This document shows positions 2,382 to 64,000 of a stretch of 64,000 nucleotides of DNA, piece by piece (position 1 is the stretch's first letter; each line of letters opens with the position of its first letter). The DNA comes from a virus (Duplodnaviria > Caudoviricetes): positions 17,332 through 81,331 of IMG/VR virus record IMGVR_UViG_3300037461_000547; one strand, written 5' to 3'. Below the pieces are notes generated by a model that ran no database searches, was not told where the DNA came from, and saw nothing but the letters and a program-made list of their open reading frames with translations. A program made the translations under genes and the position numbers.

Positions 2382-2598
2382 GCCCCCATAGCTCAATTGG
2401 TAGAGCGTCGAGTGTAGAAGCACAGGGAGATAATGCCGTGCCAATCGTAAGATTTGACGAATCTCTACGAAAAGGTTGTGGTCAATATGGGTTTGCTGCC
2501 CAGACCATCACGGAGAAATAATGCCCTGCTACCTTGAAGGCGTGCCCTGTAGGTTCGTCACTACGCTGGGCCTGTGGGTTCGAGTCCCACTGGGGGTA
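2382..2598 (+). ncRNA. Large tRNA-like RNA (217 nt) with expanded anticodon domain and long variable arm
   Basis: Acceptor GCCCCCA/TGGGGGT plus A73; D arm GCTC-AATTGGTA-GAGC; TCGAG/CTTGA stem enclosing 120 nt; T arm GTGGG-TTCGAGT-CCCAC; no encoded CCA. Confidence 0.85.
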
Positions 2599-5212: not shown

Positions 5213-5329
5213 GCGGCGGGCAGTTGGTCTGCAACTCTTTCGTTTTCGTCCGGTTCTTACTGCCGGATTCCGTTATCGTTTCGCCAACGCCTACGGACAG
5301 GGTGAGTCTGGCCACCACGCCACCGCCGC
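5213..5329 (-). ncRNA. Putative ~120-nt structured RNA, copy 1
   Basis: Begins GCGGCGGTGGC and ends TGCCCGCCGC; internal hairpins; intergenic. Confidence 0.5.
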
Positions 5330-6702: not shown

Positions 6703-6824
6703 GGCGGCGGGCATTCATCAAAATCTTGGTTTGACCTCAGTACGGCTTATTAGGACTTAAACCAAGTAACCTCTTGTCCTGTATGTCCGTCGTTTTGGTC
6801 TGGTAGATGTTTGTCACCGCCGCC
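6703..6824 (-). ncRNA. Putative ~120-nt structured RNA, copy 2
   Basis: GGCGGCGGTGAC...TGCCCGCCGCC termini; internal CTTGGTTT/AAACCAAG stem. Confidence 0.5.
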
Positions 6825-6905: not shown

Positions 6906-7026
6906 GCAGCGGGCAGGATAAAACTGGCAATATTTCCTGAGCAATCTTTACAAAGACCTTTGGGGAGCAAGACTCAACCTACTCAATCAGTTCCAGTTTT
7001 GGCTGCTTCATATAAGCCACCGCCGC
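6906..7026 (-). ncRNA. Putative ~120-nt structured RNA, copy 3
   Basis: GCGGCGGTGGC...TGCCCGCTGC termini; internal AAAACTGG/CCAGTTTT stem. Confidence 0.5.
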
Positions 7027-8818: not shown

Positions 8819-9026
8819 GGTTATCTGTCCTTTCATCCATAAGATGGACGAGTTCTCGTAATTCATCAAGCGTTACAATGTCCCAAAACTCCATCTCCCA
8901 AATCCCACGTCCGAGATCGTGTAAGAGACCTACACGACCCCGAACGTCGGCGACTTCTAAAATCTTTGGGGTTTCGGTATCAAGGAGACGTACAATTTTT
9001 CTCGAATTTTTGTTCCTTGAGTTCAT
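8790..9026 (-). CDS. Hypothetical protein
   Basis: 78-aa ORF in a packed string. Confidence 0.55.
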   Translation of the reverse strand: MNSRNKNSRKIVRLLDTETPKILEVADVRGRVGLLHDLGRGIWEMEFWDIVTLDELRELVHLMDERTDNHGSRRTFGT

Positions 9027-9267
9027 GCTTTACCTCACTAACTACTGCTTCAAGCAGTTCAAGACTTGTAGCACGTAACAAGGAGAGTAATCCATCACCG
9101 TCCTTAGCACGTAGAGATGCTTCGCTGTATCCATTGGACACCAATAGATTTATTGAATCTGAGCAAAGTACCTTCACTAAGTCGATTGCGTTTACCAGTT
9201 CTTTTAATTGTTGATGCAAACGAACTGTGTTCGTTGCAACTATATACAACTTCTCATTACTGTCCAT
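8980..9267 (-). CDS. Hypothetical protein
   Basis: GGAGG RBS, 95 aa. Confidence 0.75.
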   Translation of the reverse strand: MDSNEKLYIVATNTVRLHQQLKELVNAIDLVKVLCSDSINLLVSNGYSEASLRAKDGDGLLSLLRATSLELLEAVVSEVKHELKEQKFEKNCTSP

Positions 9268-9284
9268 AAATCCTCCATACTATT

Positions 9285-9476
9285 TTATTTAACACAAAAG
9301 GGACGGACAAGAATTTCCACGTTCTCATGAAATACCATAGAACCTAAAGACATTATCCCTTTCTTTTCTGCCTGTGAAGCGTTGTCCGCAAGCACAGTTC
9401 CTTGTTGCAATATATGTTGTTCATTTAGATCGCCATAATCTACTGCTACCCATTCATACACTTTTTTCTTTTCCAT
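9285..9476 (-). CDS. Hypothetical protein
   Basis: AAAGGA RBS before ATG 9476. Confidence 0.7.
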   Translation of the reverse strand: MEKKKVYEWVAVDYGDLNEQHILQQGTVLADNASQAEKKGIMSLGSMVFHENVEILVRPFCVK

Positions 9477-9817
9477 TTGTTTTCCTTTCCAAATAATAAA
9501 GACCCCAATAACACCCACAACGTTGTGGGTTCTGGGACTATTTTTCCTTGATATTTGTCATTAACATAGAATGAAACGGAATCTCCGGTATTGATGTACA
9601 GAATCCTACTATCGGTACCTTCGAAGTTGGGTAAGTTGTATGTTGTGCCACACCATAGGATTCTGATGTCTTCAATATTGGGCGGTGGTACTGATATTCC
9701 CAACCAATATGGTATTGTTGTTTGATACACGGGCTGATTTATTAAATCAACACGACGCCCATCTGTCGTGGGATACGCTGTCAATATTATTATAGTGAGG
9801 AGATGTATAATATTCAT
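9446..9817 (-). CDS. Secreted protein with C-terminal PEP-CTERM sorting signal
   Basis: Hydrophobic N-terminus; C-terminal VPEPTTLWVLLGSLLFG followed by basic KENKWKRKK. Confidence 0.8.
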   Translation of the reverse strand: MNIIHLLTIIILTAYPTTDGRRVDLINQPVYQTTIPYWLGISVPPPNIEDIRILWCGTTYNLPNFEGTDSRILYINTGDSVSFYVNDKYQGKIVPEPTTLWVLLGSLLFGKENKWKRKKCMNG

Positions 9818-9837
9818 TGTTTTATTTCTTTTCAAGG

Positions 9838-9941
9838 TCAAGAGGTGGGTTTCTCACCCACAGTACACTGAGTGCTCCGTTGCACATAACGGACTTGCGA
9901 CTATACAGATGTGCCTGTACCCTGCGTACGCAGACTCTTGA
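9838..9941 (-). ncRNA. Putative multi-way-junction RNA with complementary (kissing) loops
   Basis: 7-bp closing stem TCAAGAG/CTCTTGA; five hairpins; loops GCACAT (9882-9887) and ATGTGC (9909-9914) are exact reverse complements. Confidence 0.7.
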
Positions 9942-9956
9942 TGCGTTAAGGTTACG

Positions 9957-10130
9957 TTACTCAAACAATGTTACGAAAGTATCGGTGAATTGTTCGACAC
10001 CATAGTCTGATAGCACATCATAGACATCTTCCCCGTCATTGACACGCACTCTCATGTCGTCAATAACTTCGACGGCTTCCTCACGTTCGATACCTTCTGA
10101 CTCCATTACCGCTGCGATTAATTCTTCCAT
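9957..10130 (-). CDS. Small acidic protein (57 aa, below track cutoff)
   Basis: AAAGGA RBS; MEELIAAVMESEGIEREEAVEVIDDM... Confidence 0.75.
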   Translation of the reverse strand: MEELIAAVMESEGIEREEAVEVIDDMRVRVNDGEDVYDVLSDYGVEQFTDTFVTLFE

Positions 10131-10224
10131 ACTGTGTCCTTTCTTCTTGTGATTAATAAAATCAAAACAATTATCAACGTAATAATTGTCGGTTTAATCA
10201 TTGTACACTCTTTCTTATTAAAAG

Positions 10225-10304
10225 TGCCAGTACCATGGGGGATTCGAACCCGCATTCCTGATACTATTTATCAGATCCTACCAATTAGATGAATGTGTAC
10301 TGGC
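10225..10304 (-). tRNA. Aberrant tRNA-like gene (pseudo-tRNA), no valid anticodon
   Basis: GCCAGTAC/GTACTGGC stem plus A; D loop AATTGGTA; CTGAT/ATCAG stem; T loop TTCGAAT; acceptor extended by CAT/ATG; anticodon loop AAATAGT lacks U33. Confidence 0.65.
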
Positions 10305-10317
10305 AATATTCACAGGT

Positions 10318-10346
10318 GAGTGAGTCGACACCGAGCCGACTCACTC
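10318..10346. other. Perfect 10-bp hairpin upstream of the tRNA-like gene (terminator or processing site)
   Basis: GAGTGAGTCG / CGACTCACTC. Confidence 0.6.
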
Positions 10347-10381
10347 TATTGAAGGGAGACCTAAATAGAAAGGGAGAAGAC

Positions 10382-11656
10382 CTACAGGAATATTCCATGT
10401 TGATTTTCAAGAAGCGTAAGGATTTGACCAATCAAATAGTTCTGCATCTCACGTGTATTGTCACCTGCACAAGATTCCAAATGTGCGATTTCCTCTAAGA
10501 TAGTTTCAGCGAGTCGACGCAACCCTAAATCAAATAGGCGTGTGGACAATATTATTTTTCCGTTGTGTGCACGTCCATATATCTTAGAGTCTGTGAACCG
10601 TGCTATGAGAATTTCATACTTTATTTCTATCCCCACTTCTTTGAAAAATTCTAAAACTTTATTTAGTTTGAAGATTTCCCGTTTCGTGGGTGTTGACACT
10701 AAATACTCGTGTCTAACATCTACAGATTGGACAACAGATTTAAGATCTGGAAACTCACTTATCAAGACACTGAGTAAAGATGTTGGTAACTGTATTGCAT
10801 TAGATGCTGTGACATCATCGGGATACCAACCAGCATATTCCAGAGGTATTAAGAGTTTGTCCTTGAAAAATTCAAACCAATCATCGTTAAACATACCTGG
10901 ACAAGAGTCGTGCCACCGTAATCTATGTTCAAATCGTTCTTCCTTTAATGTAGTACAGTAAAGACTTAACATTTGTTTTGTTGCCATTGACGCCCACATC
11001 TTACATATACGTTCCTGAATATCACAAGACCAAGAAATTATGCGACACTCATTTACATGGATATTGTGAAAATCATAATCGAACAATGATGTATATTGTT
11101 CGTCATAAGCACGTACCCCTTTACGATAAAGAGTCATGTGTTGACCGGCACGGTTATAAATTTTTCCAACTTCATTCCCTGCAAGAGGGATTCTTTTCAT
11201 CGCAAAGTAACTTGTCCAATCTGTCGCGATAGCTTCGAGCTGTTCACCCACACATTTTATATGAAAGACTGTGGTGTTTTCTTTGGGTTGTGGGTCATCT
11301 TGTAAACTGTGTTCATATTCGCCTTCATCAATCGCGTTACAGAATATTTCACGTATCGCGTGCCACAATTTCCAATCTGGTCCCATATCAGTTGTTAGGG
11401 AAGTTTTTTGGCCGTTAATGTAAATAACATTAAATTCTTTACCTCTAAAAATTGTTGGTCGGGCATCAATGTAGATTTCTTGCAATCCTGAAAACACCTG
11501 AAACGGAATATTGTCCCGCAGGAGTACAGCTATTGCATATTTTAATCCCGAACCAAAGTAACCTATTGAATTTGTCCCACGTTTTGTGCATGCACCAAGC
11601 AATTGAAAAGCGTCTGGTTCAATCAGTGTGTTGTTTTGTATCACTAATGTTTTCAT
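10382..11656 (-). CDS. GHKL-type ATPase with permuted motif order and C-terminal EExxH motif
   Basis: IGYFGSGLKYA precedes AIREIFCNAIDEG; C-terminal ETILEEIAHLES. Confidence 0.7.
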   Translation of the reverse strand: MKTLVIQNNTLIEPDAFQLLGACTKRGTNSIGYFGSGLKYAIAVLLRDNIPFQVFSGLQEIYIDARPTIFRGKEFNVIYINGQKTSLTTDMGPDWKLWHAIREIFCNAIDEGEYEHSLQDDPQPKENTTVFHIKCVGEQLEAIATDWTSYFAMKRIPLAGNEVGKIYNRAGQHMTLYRKGVRAYDEQYTSLFDYDFHNIHVNECRIISWSCDIQERICKMWASMATKQMLSLYCTTLKEERFEHRLRWHDSCPGMFNDDWFEFFKDKLLIPLEYAGWYPDDVTASNAIQLPTSLLSVLISEFPDLKSVVQSVDVRHEYLVSTPTKREIFKLNKVLEFFKEVGIEIKYEILIARFTDSKIYGRAHNGKIILSTRLFDLGLRRLAETILEEIAHLESCAGDNTREMQNYLIGQILTLLENQHGIFL

Positions 11657-11978
11657 TTTTGTTCCCTTCACCATTTATCTTGTGTCTGTCTTCTTGTTCC
11701 ATTTGTTTTCCACGTCCAAGCGCAAGTATCTTTTCCAAGAGTCTATCTTTATGTTTTTCTAAAGCCACTATAATATCAGATATAACTTCTTTATTTTCTT
11801 CGGAGTTTGTTAATATTAAAACAATGTCTCCGCCGGTACGAATATCGAACCCTTTGCAAGGCAGATTTACAGCATCCGTCACAGCATGCAACTGTTCTGT
11901 GAGTTCTAATATCCTATCAACATAATCATCTCCACAACTTCTTTTCATATTGCACCCCTTACATCCAAATTTTGACAC
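11619..11978 (-). CDS. Hypothetical protein
   Basis: 119 aa with N-terminal CxxC...C. Confidence 0.7.
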   Translation of the reverse strand: MSKFGCKGCNMKRSCGDDYVDRILELTEQLHAVTDAVNLPCKGFDIRTGGDIVLILTNSEENKEVISDIIVALEKHKDRLLEKILALGRGKQMEQEDRHKINGEGNKNENISDTKQHTD

Positions 11979-35278: not shown

Positions 35279-35293
35279 ATGAAAGGAAAAGAA

Positions 35294-38032
35294 ATGGCGG
35301 TTACAAGAACAACAGCAATTAAAAATTTCCTGATTGCGCGAACACGTCCCGATTTGGCTAATCTCTATGATATGTCAATGGAGTGCCAAGTTAATGTCGC
35401 ACAGGATGGCGGTGAAAGGATTGAAGGGACATATAGAGGGCGTCAATGGCATGGATGGTCAAACGGTGTTCAAACTTGGAAAAGTTTTCGTATCCCGTAC
35501 AATGCAAATAAAAATCCAGAATATGAAGATGTTGAATTAAAATTCGATTTAGCTGAACATGCTGAAGGCATCGGGATGACTGGGTGGGATTGGAAACACA
35601 AAGTAAGTAAATGGGTTGCTTTTGACTTCGATGCTATAATCGGCCACACTGGAAGTAAAGCATTAAATACACGAAGTGAGATTCAGCAAATCGCGGATGC
35701 TGCGTGTGGTATCCCGTGGGTTACTGTAAGATCGTCAACATCTGGAAGTGGATTACATTTGTATGTTTTTCTTAATCCTGTTGTTAATACGGATAATCAC
35801 AATGAACATGCTGCCCTCGCGCGTTCTATTTTAGGTGTAATGTCCGCGATGACAGGGTTTGATTTTAGTGCTAAAGTGGATGCCTGTGGTGGTAATATGT
35901 GGGTTTGGCATAGACGTATGACTAACGACGGACTACGATGCACGAAATCGGGTGTAGCTTTGTCTGAAGTACCTGTTAATTGGAGAGACCATCTTAATGT
36001 TATTTCAGGACAACGGAAAAAGACGATTCCAAACAATTTACAAAACATTCCAACAAGAGATGATTCGTCTAATCTTTCGGAAACTGAACGAATTTTTGAA
36101 GAACTCACAGGACAAAGACCGAATATCTTACTTGATATAACACATAAAAAACTCATTGACTTTATACGAGATTCAGGATACATTTGGTGGTGGGATGCAG
36201 ACAATCATATGCTTGTTACGCACACATGTGCACTTGCTGATGCACATTTAGCACTCTCACTCAGGGGTCTTTTTAAGACGTCCTCACCTAATTCTGACCC
36301 ACACACTCAAAATTGTTTCTGCTTCCCACTTCCCGATGGCGGATGGATTGTCCGACGATTCACACCAGGTGTTCAGGAAGCAGATACTTGGTCGCAAGAT
36401 GCTGGAGGTTGGACACGATGTTATTTTAATGTTGAACCTGATTTAAAAACAGCGGCACGTTCTTTTGAAGGCGTTGAGCATGATAAAAAGGGCTTCATTT
36501 TCCGTCATGCCGAGATGGCCGTACGAACCGCAGAAGCCGTAAATGTTTACCCGAATCTCCCGAATTGGGCGATGGCGCGTGAAGCAACGATTAAACGACA
36601 CAAAGACGGACGTATGATTTTCGAAATCAAGCGTGAAGCAACTGACCATTATGACGATATGAAAGGATGGTTGGCCGAAAAAGATGTTTGGCGTAAAATC
36701 TTTGATAGAGTTGTTGATGTTGACAGGATGGAGATTGGAAATTTTGACAACATTGTTCGGCATATCGTCACTGAATCTGGCGAAGATTGTGGGTGGTCAA
36801 TTAAATCAGATGAAGTTTGGCGGAGTGAACCGCTTAACCATGTTAAAGTTGCATTGAAATCTATGGGCCACAACCCGCAAGAGGTTGACCAAATCTTGGG
36901 TTCGAGTATTTTCCAATGTTGGGAATTGGTGAACAGACCCTTTGACCCTGAATATCCTGGGAATAGGAAATGGAATAAGGGTGCTGCACAATTTAGATTC
37001 ACGCCATCACAAACGCGCGACGATTTGAAATATCCGACGTGGGAGAAAATTCTTAATCACGTTGGCATTGGTTTGGATTCAGCAGTTTCCGACAGTGATT
37101 GGTGTAAAACAAACGGAATAATTTCTGGCGCGGATTATCTTATGTGTTGGGTCGCATCTTTATTCCAAGAGCCCCGCGAACCACTCCCGTATTTATTTTT
37201 GCATGGACCGCAGAACAGTGGTAAAAGTATTTTACATGAAGCACTCAGTCTTTTACTCACGACAGGGTATCAACGTGCAGATAACTGTTTATCCAGCTCA
37301 TCGATTTTTAATGGTGAATTGGAAAATGCTGTCATCTGTGTTGTGGAAGAAACAGACTTGAAACGTAATAAAGTTGCGTATAACCGTATTAAGGATTGGG
37401 TAACATCGAAACATTTGAATATCCGACATCTGTACCGAAGCCCATATCATGTGCCTAACACAACACACTGGATACATTGTGCTAATGACGCATCTGCTTG
37501 TCCTGTATTTGCAGGTGATACACGAATAACAATGTGTTACGTGGATGCATTAAATCCTGGTGACGCAATTCCTAAAAAATATTTATTTCCGAAATTAGAG
37601 TCTGAAGCGCCAGATTTCTTGGCGCGTGTTTTATTCCTTGAAATTCCAAAAACCAACGACCGTCTAAATATTCCTGTACTGATGACCAGTGATAAGGAAT
37701 TTTTACAATCACAAAATCAGTCAAGCGTTGAAATGTTTTTCGATGATTGTGCATATTATGTTGAAGGTGAAATGATTAGTTTTTCTGATGTTTATGAAAA
37801 GTTTCTTGAATGGCTTGACCCCGCTGAAATTCACGATTGGTCGAAAATTAAATTCGGGCGTGAGTTACCTTCAGTATATCCTAAAGGACGTAGGATTTCT
37901 GATGGTACACACTGGATTGGGAATCTGTCTTTCGAACCTAAAGAATCCACAGCCCCAAAACTGATTGTACGTCAAGGAAAACTTGTCCCTGCAGGAGAAC
38001 ATAGCGATGGCACGACCAATAAACAAGAATAA
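35294..38032 (+). CDS. Primase-helicase (primpol-like N-terminus, SF3 helicase C-terminus)
   Basis: AFDFD and SSTSGSGLHLY; Walker A HGPQNSGKS, Walker B VVEE. Confidence 0.85.
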   Translation: MAVTRTTAIKNFLIARTRPDLANLYDMSMECQVNVAQDGGERIEGTYRGRQWHGWSNGVQTWKSFRIPYNANKNPEYEDVELKFDLAEHAEGIGMTGWDWKHKVSKWVAFDFDAIIGHTGSKALNTRSEIQQIADAACGIPWVTVRSSTSGSGLHLYVFLNPVVNTDNHNEHAALARSILGVMSAMTGFDFSAKVDACGGNMWVWHRRMTNDGLRCTKSGVALSEVPVNWRDHLNVISGQRKKTIPNNLQNIPTRDDSSNLSETERIFEELTGQRPNILLDITHKKLIDFIRDSGYIWWWDADNHMLVTHTCALADAHLALSLRGLFKTSSPNSDPHTQNCFCFPLPDGGWIVRRFTPGVQEADTWSQDAGGWTRCYFNVEPDLKTAARSFEGVEHDKKGFIFRHAEMAVRTAEAVNVYPNLPNWAMAREATIKRHKDGRMIFEIKREATDHYDDMKGWLAEKDVWRKIFDRVVDVDRMEIGNFDNIVRHIVTESGEDCGWSIKSDEVWRSEPLNHVKVALKSMGHNPQEVDQILGSSIFQCWELVNRPFDPEYPGNRKWNKGAAQFRFTPSQTRDDLKYPTWEKILNHVGIGLDSAVSDSDWCKTNGIISGADYLMCWVASLFQEPREPLPYLFLHGPQNSGKSILHEALSLLLTTGYQRADNCLSSSSIFNGELENAVICVVEETDLKRNKVAYNRIKDWVTSKHLNIRHLYRSPYHVPNTTHWIHCANDASACPVFAGDTRITMCYVDALNPGDAIPKKYLFPKLESEAPDFLARVLFLEIPKTNDRLNIPVLMTSDKEFLQSQNQSSVEMFFDDCAYYVEGEMISFSDVYEKFLEWLDPAEIHDWSKIKFGRELPSVYPKGRRISDGTHWIGNLSFEPKESTAPKLIVRQGKLVPAGEHSDGTTNKQE

Positions 38033-63262: not shown

Positions 63263-63897
63263 TATTTTTTCTCCTCAACAACTTCAACGAAACCGGATAC
63301 AACACGTAATTTTGGATTATATTTTACAAATCTCCAACGACCGTATGTCGTTGGTTTGGGTGGATGTCGTGCATCATCCGTAAGGGATTGATATGCAATT
63401 TTCATTGCGTTTCTTACAGCGTGCCACGGTGGGTACACGACTTTACCCGTCATAGTTTTTCCACCTAAATGAAAACACGGTGCACCTGTATGTATATTCT
63501 CAATTTTATTTGTATCAACTTGATCATTAAGGTTAAAGTGATCAACAAACGTTTCCCAATTAAAGTTGAACCACATGTTTGCATCACCTTTTAGTATTGT
63601 CGTTTTCACACCCATCTTCCCACCTAAAGACTCACCTAATGCGCGTCGATCCGGCGCATCTTCAACAGGGATAATGGGTACGGCAAAACGTACGGCTCTG
63701 GCCAACGGTTTTATCGAGGCCAGAGCCATACCAGACCAGACGGGAACACTTTTATAGATTTCAGCACAAAAAGTACGGCCAGCTTTTCGTATTATCCGGT
63801 TTCCAAATTCAAAAACAGCTTTATTGAATTTATCAACGTTGAACTCATAAAATTTGAGTGTTAGCGATGCACTAATAAAATTTTTATTTGTGGACAT
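63262..63897 (-). CDS. Hypothetical tail/neck completion protein
   Basis: 211 aa immediately upstream of the tape measure. Confidence 0.6.
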   Translation of the reverse strand: MSTNKNFISASLTLKFYEFNVDKFNKAVFEFGNRIIRKAGRTFCAEIYKSVPVWSGMALASIKPLARAVRFAVPIIPVEDAPDRRALGESLGGKMGVKTTILKGDANMWFNFNWETFVDHFNLNDQVDTNKIENIHTGAPCFHLGGKTMTGKVVYPPWHAVRNAMKIAYQSLTDDARHPPKPTTYGRWRFVKYNPKLRVVSGFVEVVEEKK

Positions 63898-64000
63898 TAT
63901 GCTGGCGGACCTTTCGTTGCAACACCTATTGTTGCAAGTTCCATTTCTTCATACTCACGAATTTGTTCATACGTTAATAGTTGTGAAATTGTCCATGCTG
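63897..64000 (-). CDS. 3' end of a gene entering from the right edge (possible tail assembly chaperone)
   Basis: ...AWTISQLLTYEQIREYEEMELATIGVATKGPPA*, TAATG overlap. Confidence 0.5.
   Translation of the reverse strand, partial: AWTISQLLTYEQIREYEEMELATIGVATKGPPA

Follow-up and report, generated by a model that had tools for sequence, protein, structure and literature searches.

A 104-nt element located between two genes of an uncultured phage probably forms a real, orphan intercistronic RNA domain. The element occupies positions 9838-9941 on the minus strand of a 64,000-nt stretch of DNA (hereafter called the window), which is part of an 81,331-bp IMG/VR virus record from a wetland metagenome. 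The interpretation that we favor, with a probability of roughly 0.38, is that this RNA serves as a compact cis-acting domain of a polycistronic message, and that it would be locked into shape by an intramolecular kissing helix of 6 bp formed between the loops of two neighboring hairpins. The parts of this proposal do not stand equally firm. We consider it fairly likely that the predicted fold is a selected RNA structure. The suggestion that the contact between the two loops is functional is more tentative, at somewhat less than even odds.

Because all neighboring genes are encoded on the minus strand, the transcript of interest is the reverse complement of the listed strand, and position p of this sense RNA corresponds to 9942 minus the window coordinate. 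The minimum free energy (MFE) fold of the sense strand, at -37.7 kcal/mol, is exactly the proposed architecture. A 7-bp closing helix forms between the 5′ strand UCAAGAG (9935-9941) and the 3′ strand CUCUUGA (9838-9844), as apparent both from reading the sequence and from the sense fold, and it has a mean pair probability of 0.95 when the element is folded in isolation. Hairpin 1 (9921-9934) follows, with the stem CUGC/GCAG, a U.G extension, and the palindromic loop GUAC (pair probability of 0.96). Next is hairpin 2 (9903-9920), in which the stem UACAG/CUGUA and an additional G.U pair present the loop GCACAU at 9909-9914 (0.98). A linker of 9 nt, AGUCGCAAG (9894-9902), is unpaired in both the MFE and centroid structures and leads to hairpin 3 (9876-9893), where the stem UCCGUU/AACGGA carries the loop AUGUGC at 9882-9887 (0.92). 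Hairpin 4 (9865-9875), which pairs as GCAC/GUGU or alternatively as CAG/CUG, is marginal, with a pair probability of 0.36-0.37. Lastly, hairpin 5 (9845-9861; GUGGGU/ACCCAC, 0.99) abuts the 3′ strand of the closing helix and can be read either as 6 bp with the loop GAGAA or as 5 bp with the 7-nt loop UGAGAAA. All of these parts are on the minus strand. The three sense frames of the element each contain stops, and the element is non-coding.

An initial annotation of this region had proposed a six-way junction. Every stem and loop that it listed is present in the sequence, at the plus-strand coordinates 9838-9844 (TCAAGAG) with 9935-9941 (CTCTTGA), 9845-9850 (GTGGGT) with 9856-9861 (ACCCAC), 9860-9869 (the 3-bp CAG/CTG hairpin), 9876-9881 (TCCGTT), 9882-9887 (GCACAT), 9888-9893 (AACGGA), 9904-9908 (TACAG), 9909-9914 (ATGTGC), 9915-9919 (CTGTA), and 9922-9925 (CTGC) with 9930-9933 (GCAG). 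The closing helix and four of the hairpins (1, 2, 3, and 5) are each predicted on the sense strand with a probability of at least 0.92, but the helix that would make the sixth arm is marginal (0.37). It therefore appears safer to describe the element as a five-way junction that may have a sixth helix.

The 6-nt loops of hairpins 2 and 3 are exact reverse complements, as had been claimed at the outset. The duplex that they could form comprises six Watson-Crick pairs (-6.3 kcal/mol), and a structure in which the two hairpins form with their loops free is better by 7 kcal/mol than one in which the loops are part of a nested helix. Most likely, the two loops would pair within the same molecule, and the resulting 6-bp kissing helix would compact the junction. 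On geometric grounds, the 9-nt linker could plausibly span the coaxial stack of ~17 bp that would be created by stem, kissing helix, and stem, and a closed, ring-like junction seems feasible because the remaining helices are joined without spacers. Hairpin pairs of this kind are rare. When we counted perfect hairpins with a stem of at least 5 bp and a loop of 4-8 nt that occur within 60 nt and share at least six complementary loop bases, the 81-kb genome yielded a single pair, hairpins 2 and 3, versus a mean of 0.033 per genome for 30 Markov-shuffled genomes. Two such pairs were present in 1.2 Mb of other phage loci, both of them A/U-rich and chance-like.

The architecture also has a preferred strand. 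On the plus strand, the mirror image of hairpin 2 has a pair probability of only 0.17, and a different long arm forms there. Furthermore, three G.U pairs that extend helices, including the U.G pair of hairpin 1, are confined to the sense strand. From the collapse of hairpin 2 and the asymmetry of the G.U pairs, it follows that an arrangement with two free complementary loops is specific to the expected transcript strand. This result bears on the alternative that the element operates at the level of DNA, perhaps as a single-strand initiation site, an origin, or a recombination site with extruded hairpins. Every Watson-Crick stem does exist on both strands, and the element resides in a replication/recombination region near genes for a ligase, helicases, and a family A DNA polymerase (PolA). 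Nevertheless, we regard a DNA-level function as very improbable. The five inverted repeats all differ, unlike a set of repeated protein-binding sites, the element occurs only once in the 81-kb genome, and the full architecture is favored only on the transcript-sense strand, where it includes G.U extensions that are irrelevant to duplex DNA. A reading of the element as a miniature inverted-repeat transposable element (MITE) or another repeat was dropped, given that it is present as a single copy in the genome.

The genomic setting is consistent with a role in a polycistronic message. Genes located from ~34,900 down to ~3,900 of the window are nearly all on the minus strand, and this run encodes an ATP-dependent DNA ligase, helicases, ribonucleotide reductase (RNR), and PolA, with a primase-like gene (35,279-38,032, plus strand) just outside it. 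The element is surrounded by tightly packed, co-directional genes that are small and of early or middle type. Upstream is an open reading frame (ORF) for an acidic protein of 57 amino acids (9957-10130, minus strand), which has AAGGA 7 nt ahead of its ATG and a stop codon 15 nt 5′ of the element. Downstream is a gene for a secreted, PEP-CTERM-like protein of 123 amino acids (9446-9817, minus strand) whose ATG is located 20 nt 3′ of the element and is preceded by no clear Shine-Dalgarno sequence. The placement of the element ahead of this start codon, as originally reported, is correct, and the element is on the strand of that gene. The gap between the upstream stop codon and the downstream start codon is 139 nt, of which the element takes up 104 nt. 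That it spans nearly the whole gap among such tightly packed genes supports the view that it is a real domain, as does the presence in the same phage of other closed intergenic RNA domains and of tRNA-shaped RNAs (see below).

We propose that the domain, which separates the 57-amino-acid ORF from the PEP-CTERM-like gene, acts in cis as nuclease-resistant or processing "punctuation." The closing helix and hairpin 5 could stack to give 12 bp, and a stack of 7 and 5 bp is the shape recognized by RNase P. Accordingly shaped, this stack would be a plausible handle for host nucleases that process transfer RNA (tRNA), such as RNase P. Cleavage at the stack would separate the two cistrons, such that the upstream message would end in a protected 3′ terminus and the downstream message would begin with a structured 5′ terminus. 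Alternatively, cleavage might free the domain as a small stable RNA resembling the species 1 RNA of phage T4. Intercistronic hairpins that serve for processing and stability are familiar from the RNase III sites in the early region of phage T7, which are single and irregular. Like those sites, the element is a structured intercistronic feature that could define the ends and the stability of messenger RNAs (mRNAs). Unlike them, it is a closed multi-helix junction with a putative loop-loop lock.

A second consequence of the fold might be translational coupling. The last codons of the upstream ORF, CAUUGUUU (9963-9970, minus strand), are able to form an 8-bp helix with AAACAAUG (9815-9822), a segment that contains the start codon of the downstream gene, and this pairing brackets the element. 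This helix is present in both the MFE and centroid structures of a 221-nt fold, has a probability of 0.6-0.98 in contexts of 180-220 nt, and is matched by an 8-bp bracketing helix in shuffled flanks with P = 0.044. With 104 nt looped out in this manner, the upstream stop codon would be brought near to the downstream start that lacks a Shine-Dalgarno sequence, and a ribosome that terminates on the first gene could open the bracketing helix and thereby couple translation of both genes.

Several results weigh against the interpretation of the element as a functional domain, and they are gathered here along with the possibility that the fold is unselected. According to that alternative, the gap is a recombination mosaic junction between phage modules, and neither the hairpins nor the loop match serve a function. 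The folding statistics and base composition favor the domain to a moderate degree but leave room for this explanation. The z-score of the fold is -2.65 for the sense strand and -3.17 for the plus strand, and 2 of 200 shuffled sequences were equally good. The element has a guanine-cytosine (GC) content of 52%, compared with ~40% for the genome and 31-48% for neighboring windows, and when ranked with GC correction among the 10,154 genome windows of 104 nt, it is 117th on the sense strand and 77th on the plus strand, which is in the top 1% and not extreme. These statistics are moderate and post hoc, as the scan was very large and the feature was chosen by eye. For the loop pair, a genome-wide P of ~0.03 is expected to arise repeatedly by chance in a scan of such size. 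The weakness of hairpin 4 belongs on this side as well. Also, the missing Shine-Dalgarno sequence of the PEP-CTERM-like gene is unremarkable because such a sequence is not obvious in about a third of the genes of the minus-strand run.

The fold is also less secure when more of the transcript is taken into account. The probability of the closing helix is 0.17-0.26 when 300-430 nt of context are folded. In a 301-nt fold, hairpins 3 and 5 are intact in both the MFE and centroid structures, and hairpin 2 is retained only in part and in the centroid alone. Likewise, the bracketing helix is weak and depends on context, with a probability of at most 0.09 in longer contexts. Two segments of the upstream ORF, GAUGUGC (10013-10019, minus strand) and CAGACU, are responsible for the loss of the closing helix. 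They compete with hairpin 1 and with hairpin 2, whose loop and 3′ strand pair with GAUGUGC in the MFE structure. GAUGUGC is a third copy of the loop partner and is complementary to GCACAUC of hairpin 2. Translating ribosomes normally would keep this competing ORF from pairing.

No homolog of the element was found in the collections searched, and there is consequently no support from covariation or conservation. A blastn search with positions 9000-11700 against 50,697 phage records gave no match. Patterns describing the kissing hairpins, whether exact or gapped, gave zero or chance matches in viral and metagenome contig collections, as did a pattern in which the loops and linker were fixed and the stems were left free. 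In a collection of genome contigs, the same patterns produced five matches; the loci examined (L090 and L093-L097) were without a significant covariance-model score, and the only model alignment that fell on a pattern site (in L093) proved on inspection of the sequence to lack the stems. A covariance model built from the element as a single sequence (R1) identified nothing in 86 loci (1.2 Mb) around homologs of a neighboring gene for a 430-amino-acid protein, nothing in the loci of homologs of both flanking genes, and nothing in five whole related viral records. Use of the DNA polymerase as an anchor in viral contigs revealed no close relatives of the phage. An index of sequencing runs listed just one entry, the wetland metagenome that is probably the source, and none for RNA. 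The contig from that metagenome is identical and has no variants, leaving no population-level covariation to be used.

The flanking genes do have relatives, and these are found without the element. The sole homolog of the PEP-CTERM-like protein among 5.8 billion clustered proteins (P0122, 43% identity) is encoded in a locus (L009) where the preceding ORF stops 3 nt ahead of its start codon, which leaves no room for a leader. The 57-amino-acid ORF has one relative (P0129, 50% identity), which is followed by an unstructured spacer of 51 nt and then by a different gene, and the element is absent alongside the upstream-ORF homolog in its loci (L091 and L092). Relatives of the 430-amino-acid protein are at most 50% identical, and none of the inspected contigs are syntenic downstream. 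Because the homologs of the flanking genes lie elsewhere without the element, it appears to be situated at a mosaic junction and to be an orphan for now. Separately, the contig L091, which carries the homolog of the 57-amino-acid ORF, has a GC-rich intergenic region of 248 nt (1663-1910) with several hairpins.

The absence of homologs in the searched collections, the different neighborhoods of the flanking genes in other phages, a fold that is only in the top 1% with a closing helix that is unstable in long context, and a loop-pair P value (~0.03 per genome) that is weak for a feature picked by eye are what would be said in favor of a chance fold. Yet phage genomes seldom carry a GC-enriched, non-coding stretch of 115 nt unused, and the fold covers the whole gap with an architecture that is specific to the sense strand. 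Moreover, a closed domain, stable hairpins, and an exact loop match are jointly less likely than any one of them alone, and the genome has several other closed intergenic RNA domains. We judge an unselected origin to be unlikely, albeit well within reason.

Comparisons with catalogued RNAs were negative throughout. A search with Rfam 15, which covered riboswitches, small ribozymes, pRNA, ROOL and GOLLD RNAs, and tRNA, gave no matches at gathering scores across the whole window, and a 2-kb search with permissive filters gave none overlapping 9838-9941 at expectation values (E) up to 10. The element matches no catalogued RNA family, in agreement with the initial annotation, which had called it unrecognized. 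Certain of these negatives count among the unfavorable points mentioned above: the window contains no tRNA according to ARAGORN, and a search of the element with the tRNA model of Rfam has no match at E up to 10; neither a canonical T-loop nor a canonical D-loop is present in the element; and a covariance model (R2) built from T4 species 1 RNA (rnaC) and four diverged Tevenvirinae homologs, when run over the window with filters off, gave no match overlapping 9838-9941 at E up to 10. A cloverleaf with the D/T elbow signature and a 7-nt anticodon loop is likewise absent from the element, whose corresponding loops are 4 and 6 nt. Also, on neither strand does a terminator-like site occur inside the element or at its end (the 3′ flank is CCUUGAAAAG), and because no hairpin is followed by a U-tract the element is not an intrinsic terminator.

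Some narrower identities were considered and set aside. A Ro60/Y-RNA relationship was dropped because the phage has no TROVE gene. A nut site resembling boxB and boxA (the GAGAA pentaloop followed by CUCUU) was dropped because the window holds no second copy of the hairpin, and CUCUU is not counted as boxA-like because the same bases form a strand of the closing helix. An ORF of 21 codons that begins at the AUG in the loop of hairpin 3 and ends 4 nt ahead of the main AUG has no Shine-Dalgarno sequence and was judged to be a product of chance. As for a retron, no reverse transcriptase was noticed among the neighboring ORFs, although no search aimed at one was made.

The position of the element also invites the view that it is a cis-regulatory leader of the PEP-CTERM-like gene, such as a riboswitch, a thermosensor, or a protein operator, in which the kissing loops organize a junction that binds a ligand or protein. 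In lysine and purine riboswitches, the L2 and L3 loops of neighboring hairpins pair and pre-organize a multi-helix junction. The element likewise is a multi-helix junction in a 5′ leader with complementary loops on neighboring hairpins, only 20 nt separate it from a downstream start codon with no Shine-Dalgarno sequence, and the bracketing helix can mask that start codon. However, riboswitches are normally conserved across many genomes and the element is not. It has no Rfam match, no terminator/anti-terminator alternative, and no platform that would sequester a Shine-Dalgarno sequence, and the element itself leaves the start region free, which is mostly unpaired in long-context predictions. 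Furthermore, the homologous gene in L009 is without any leader, meaning that the structure is not kept ahead of it. The initial annotation had assigned the element to the leader of this gene. The assignment holds with regard to position, but the only homolog has no upstream element, and this is a weak test given that it rests on a single homolog. We consider a dedicated leader to be distinctly unlikely.

The suggestion that the element is a small ribozyme whose self-cleavage would process the polycistronic transcript is less probable by far. It would suit a compact multi-helix junction with a putative tertiary loop-loop contact in an intergenic region of a phage, and small ribozymes are common in such places. 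Nonetheless, at E up to 10 the element matches neither the hammerhead, twister, twister-sister, pistol, hatchet, and HDV-like ribozymes nor any other Rfam family, and by eye no catalytic core motif (e.g., CUGAUGA, or GAAA in junction positions) is evident. The prospects for this function are slim in the extreme.

The known RNA that most informs our favored interpretation of a locked intercistronic domain is T4 species 1 RNA, a small stable RNA of 139 nt (AF158101, 70908-71046) from the tRNA region of T4. Its acceptor-like stem is accompanied by a canonical T arm and by a pair of hairpins whose loops are UUGACG and CGUCAA. Among five Tevenvirinae, these loop sequences are invariant, and 19 stem pairs exhibit compensatory change. 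The element shares with this RNA an acceptor-like closing helix of 7 bp with a hairpin stacked on its 3′ strand, and two hairpins with exactly complementary 6-nt loops inside the closed domain, which in both RNAs occupy what would be the "anticodon" and "variable" positions. Both are also phage non-coding RNAs of ~100-140 nt that are close to tRNA-like genes; for the element, one tRNA-like sequence is found ~280 nt upstream (10225-10304), although ARAGORN calls no tRNA there. In contrast, there is no sequence similarity and the sequence of the loop pair is different. The T arm of rnaC is canonical (GGTTCGAATCC), whereas the corresponding loop of the element is UGAGAAA or GAGAA, and rnaC is part of a tRNA array, whereas the element lies between two protein genes in an mRNA. 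The element resembles rnaC in design, but neither the R2 model nor the T arm places it in that family.

Similar parallels and differences emerge when the element is compared with tRNA. The order and lengths of its helices (7, 4, and 5-6 bp, an elaborated "variable region," and 5-6 bp abutting the terminal helix) are tRNA-like, and one U follows the terminal helix. However, the "D loop" is 4 nt, and there is no GG/TΨC elbow, no 7-nt anticodon loop, and no CCA. A reported consensus for T-loops is UGNRA (10.1101/2022.12.26.521914). The UGAGA of hairpin 5 matches this generic consensus, which as a degenerate motif of 5 nt is to be taken as a lead only.

The phage carries two other RNAs that relate to tRNA. 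One is a 217-nt RNA (2382-2598, plus strand) that has the canonical acceptor, D (AAUUGGUA), and T (GGGUUCGAGUCCC) arms of a tRNA and, where the anticodon would be, a large structured insert. One of its hairpins presents the loop UGACGAA, the complement of the loop UUCGUCA of its variable arm, and this arm (GUAG-GUUCGUCA-CUAC) is closely like that of T4 rnaC (GUAG-CGUCAA-CUAC). Judging from these sequence features, the RNA looks like a species-1-type RNA; model R2, which is narrow, gave no match on it. The other is the tRNA-like sequence at 10225-10304 (minus strand), whose T arm (GGTTCGAATCC) is intact but whose anticodon loop (AAAUAGU) is aberrant and lacks U33. It has no CCA, and neither ARAGORN nor the Rfam tRNA model calls it. 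A perfect 10-bp hairpin is located just upstream of it (~10318-10346, minus strand).

A more ambitious proposal can be framed on this basis. The element might be a minimal member of an undescribed phage RNA design, in which a tRNA-derived scaffold has its "anticodon" and "variable" arms turned into a kissing pair, has lost its T-loop, and has become embedded in mRNA. Its paired loops would hold a nuclease-resistant punctuation domain closed, or else would link successive copies head to tail to make rings, and the phage would hold at least two independent versions of the design, the element and the 217-nt RNA. Taken as one joint claim, this is a long shot.

A related question is whether the loops of the element pair between molecules instead of within one. 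The initial annotation raised the possibility of a self-multimerizing RNA, which would apply if the intramolecular contact were geometrically barred, such that loop 2 pairs with loop 3 of the next copy to generate dimers or rings. In phi29 pRNA, which belongs to packaging motors of the phi29 type, complementary loops drive intermolecular assembly of a ring. The exact complementarity of the 6-nt loops and the palindromic GUAC loop of hairpin 1 would be compatible with a similar behavior. Phage-associated RNA-only homo-oligomers held together by kissing loops are documented, and the kissing contacts in the cages formed by ROOL and GOLLD RNAs are intermolecular (PMC12286853). The element is similar to phi29 pRNA, ROOL, GOLLD, and OLE RNAs in being a phage-associated RNA with complementary loops. 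Those RNAs, however, exist as free-standing, conserved molecules that make their contacts with one another, and ROOL and GOLLD exceed 500 nt, whereas the element is embedded in an mRNA and has no Rfam match to pRNA, ROOL, or GOLLD. The phage also differs from the phi29-like context of a small, protein-primed podovirus with its RNA gene at the genome end beside the packaging genes, since it has an 81-kb genome that encodes PolA, a primase, helicases, RNR, and a ligase. Moreover, the 9-nt linker can plausibly span the ~17-bp stack, and intramolecular pairing should be favored entropically. Multimerization is thus improbable in our estimation, and we continue to prefer a loop contact made within a single domain.

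Closed, structured RNAs are unusually abundant between the genes of this phage. Three intergenic elements of ~120 nt on the minus strand (5213-5329, 6703-6824, and 6906-7026) share the termini GCGGCGGUG(G/A)C ... CCCGC(C/U)GC (i.e., GCGGCGGUG...CCCGCCGC), which form a closing helix of 7-8 bp around dissimilar interiors. Each is directly upstream of a strong Shine-Dalgarno sequence and an ATG, their z-scores are -1.5, -3.4, and -0.7, and none has an Rfam match. In addition, positions 8860-8990 (minus strand) form a domain with a perfect hairpin of ~19 bp (MFE of -49.7, z-score of -3.7, equaled by none of 200 shuffles), which is among the best-folding windows genome-wide.

Some features of the surrounding genes and of the genome are also worth recording. 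The PEP-CTERM assignment of the downstream protein is below threshold, with 15.2 bits against a cut-off of 20.7 for the Pfam PEP-CTERM model and 15.9 against 16 for TIGR02595, and its tail has the order VPEP, hydrophobic stretch, and basic residues. The start of its gene was set by alignment to P0122. Overlapping the start of the 57-amino-acid ORF is the 3′ end of an ORF of 27 codons (10118-10201, minus strand) for a hydrophobic peptide (MIKPTIITLIIVLILLITRRKD...), which may be a small membrane peptide. The 430-amino-acid protein (10382-11674, minus strand) corresponds to phrog_8203, has no Pfam match, and contains an invariant GxxGxGxKY motif. It has 179 relatives in phage contigs, and these neighbor recombination genes of various kinds, including RecT, ERF, RusA, YqaJ, and DUF3799. 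Finally, the first ~176 nt of the 81,331-bp record are repeated at its end (record positions 81156-81331; window positions 63825-64000), with the two copies being exact over 48 nt and then having at least one mismatch. Despite its "linear" class, the record is probably a complete genome that is terminally redundant or was assembled as a circle.

As an orphan from a single genome with moderate statistics, the element has its value as a candidate rather than as a result. If both the fold and the loop contact are real, then a phage message would contain a very small natural junction RNA that is held closed by a 6-bp kissing helix. The element would also represent one more phage RNA built like T4 species 1 RNA, whose role has been puzzling for decades. 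The existence of a version that is embedded in mRNA and lacks the T-loop would suggest that the kissing body, and not the tRNA-like top, is the functional part of such RNAs.

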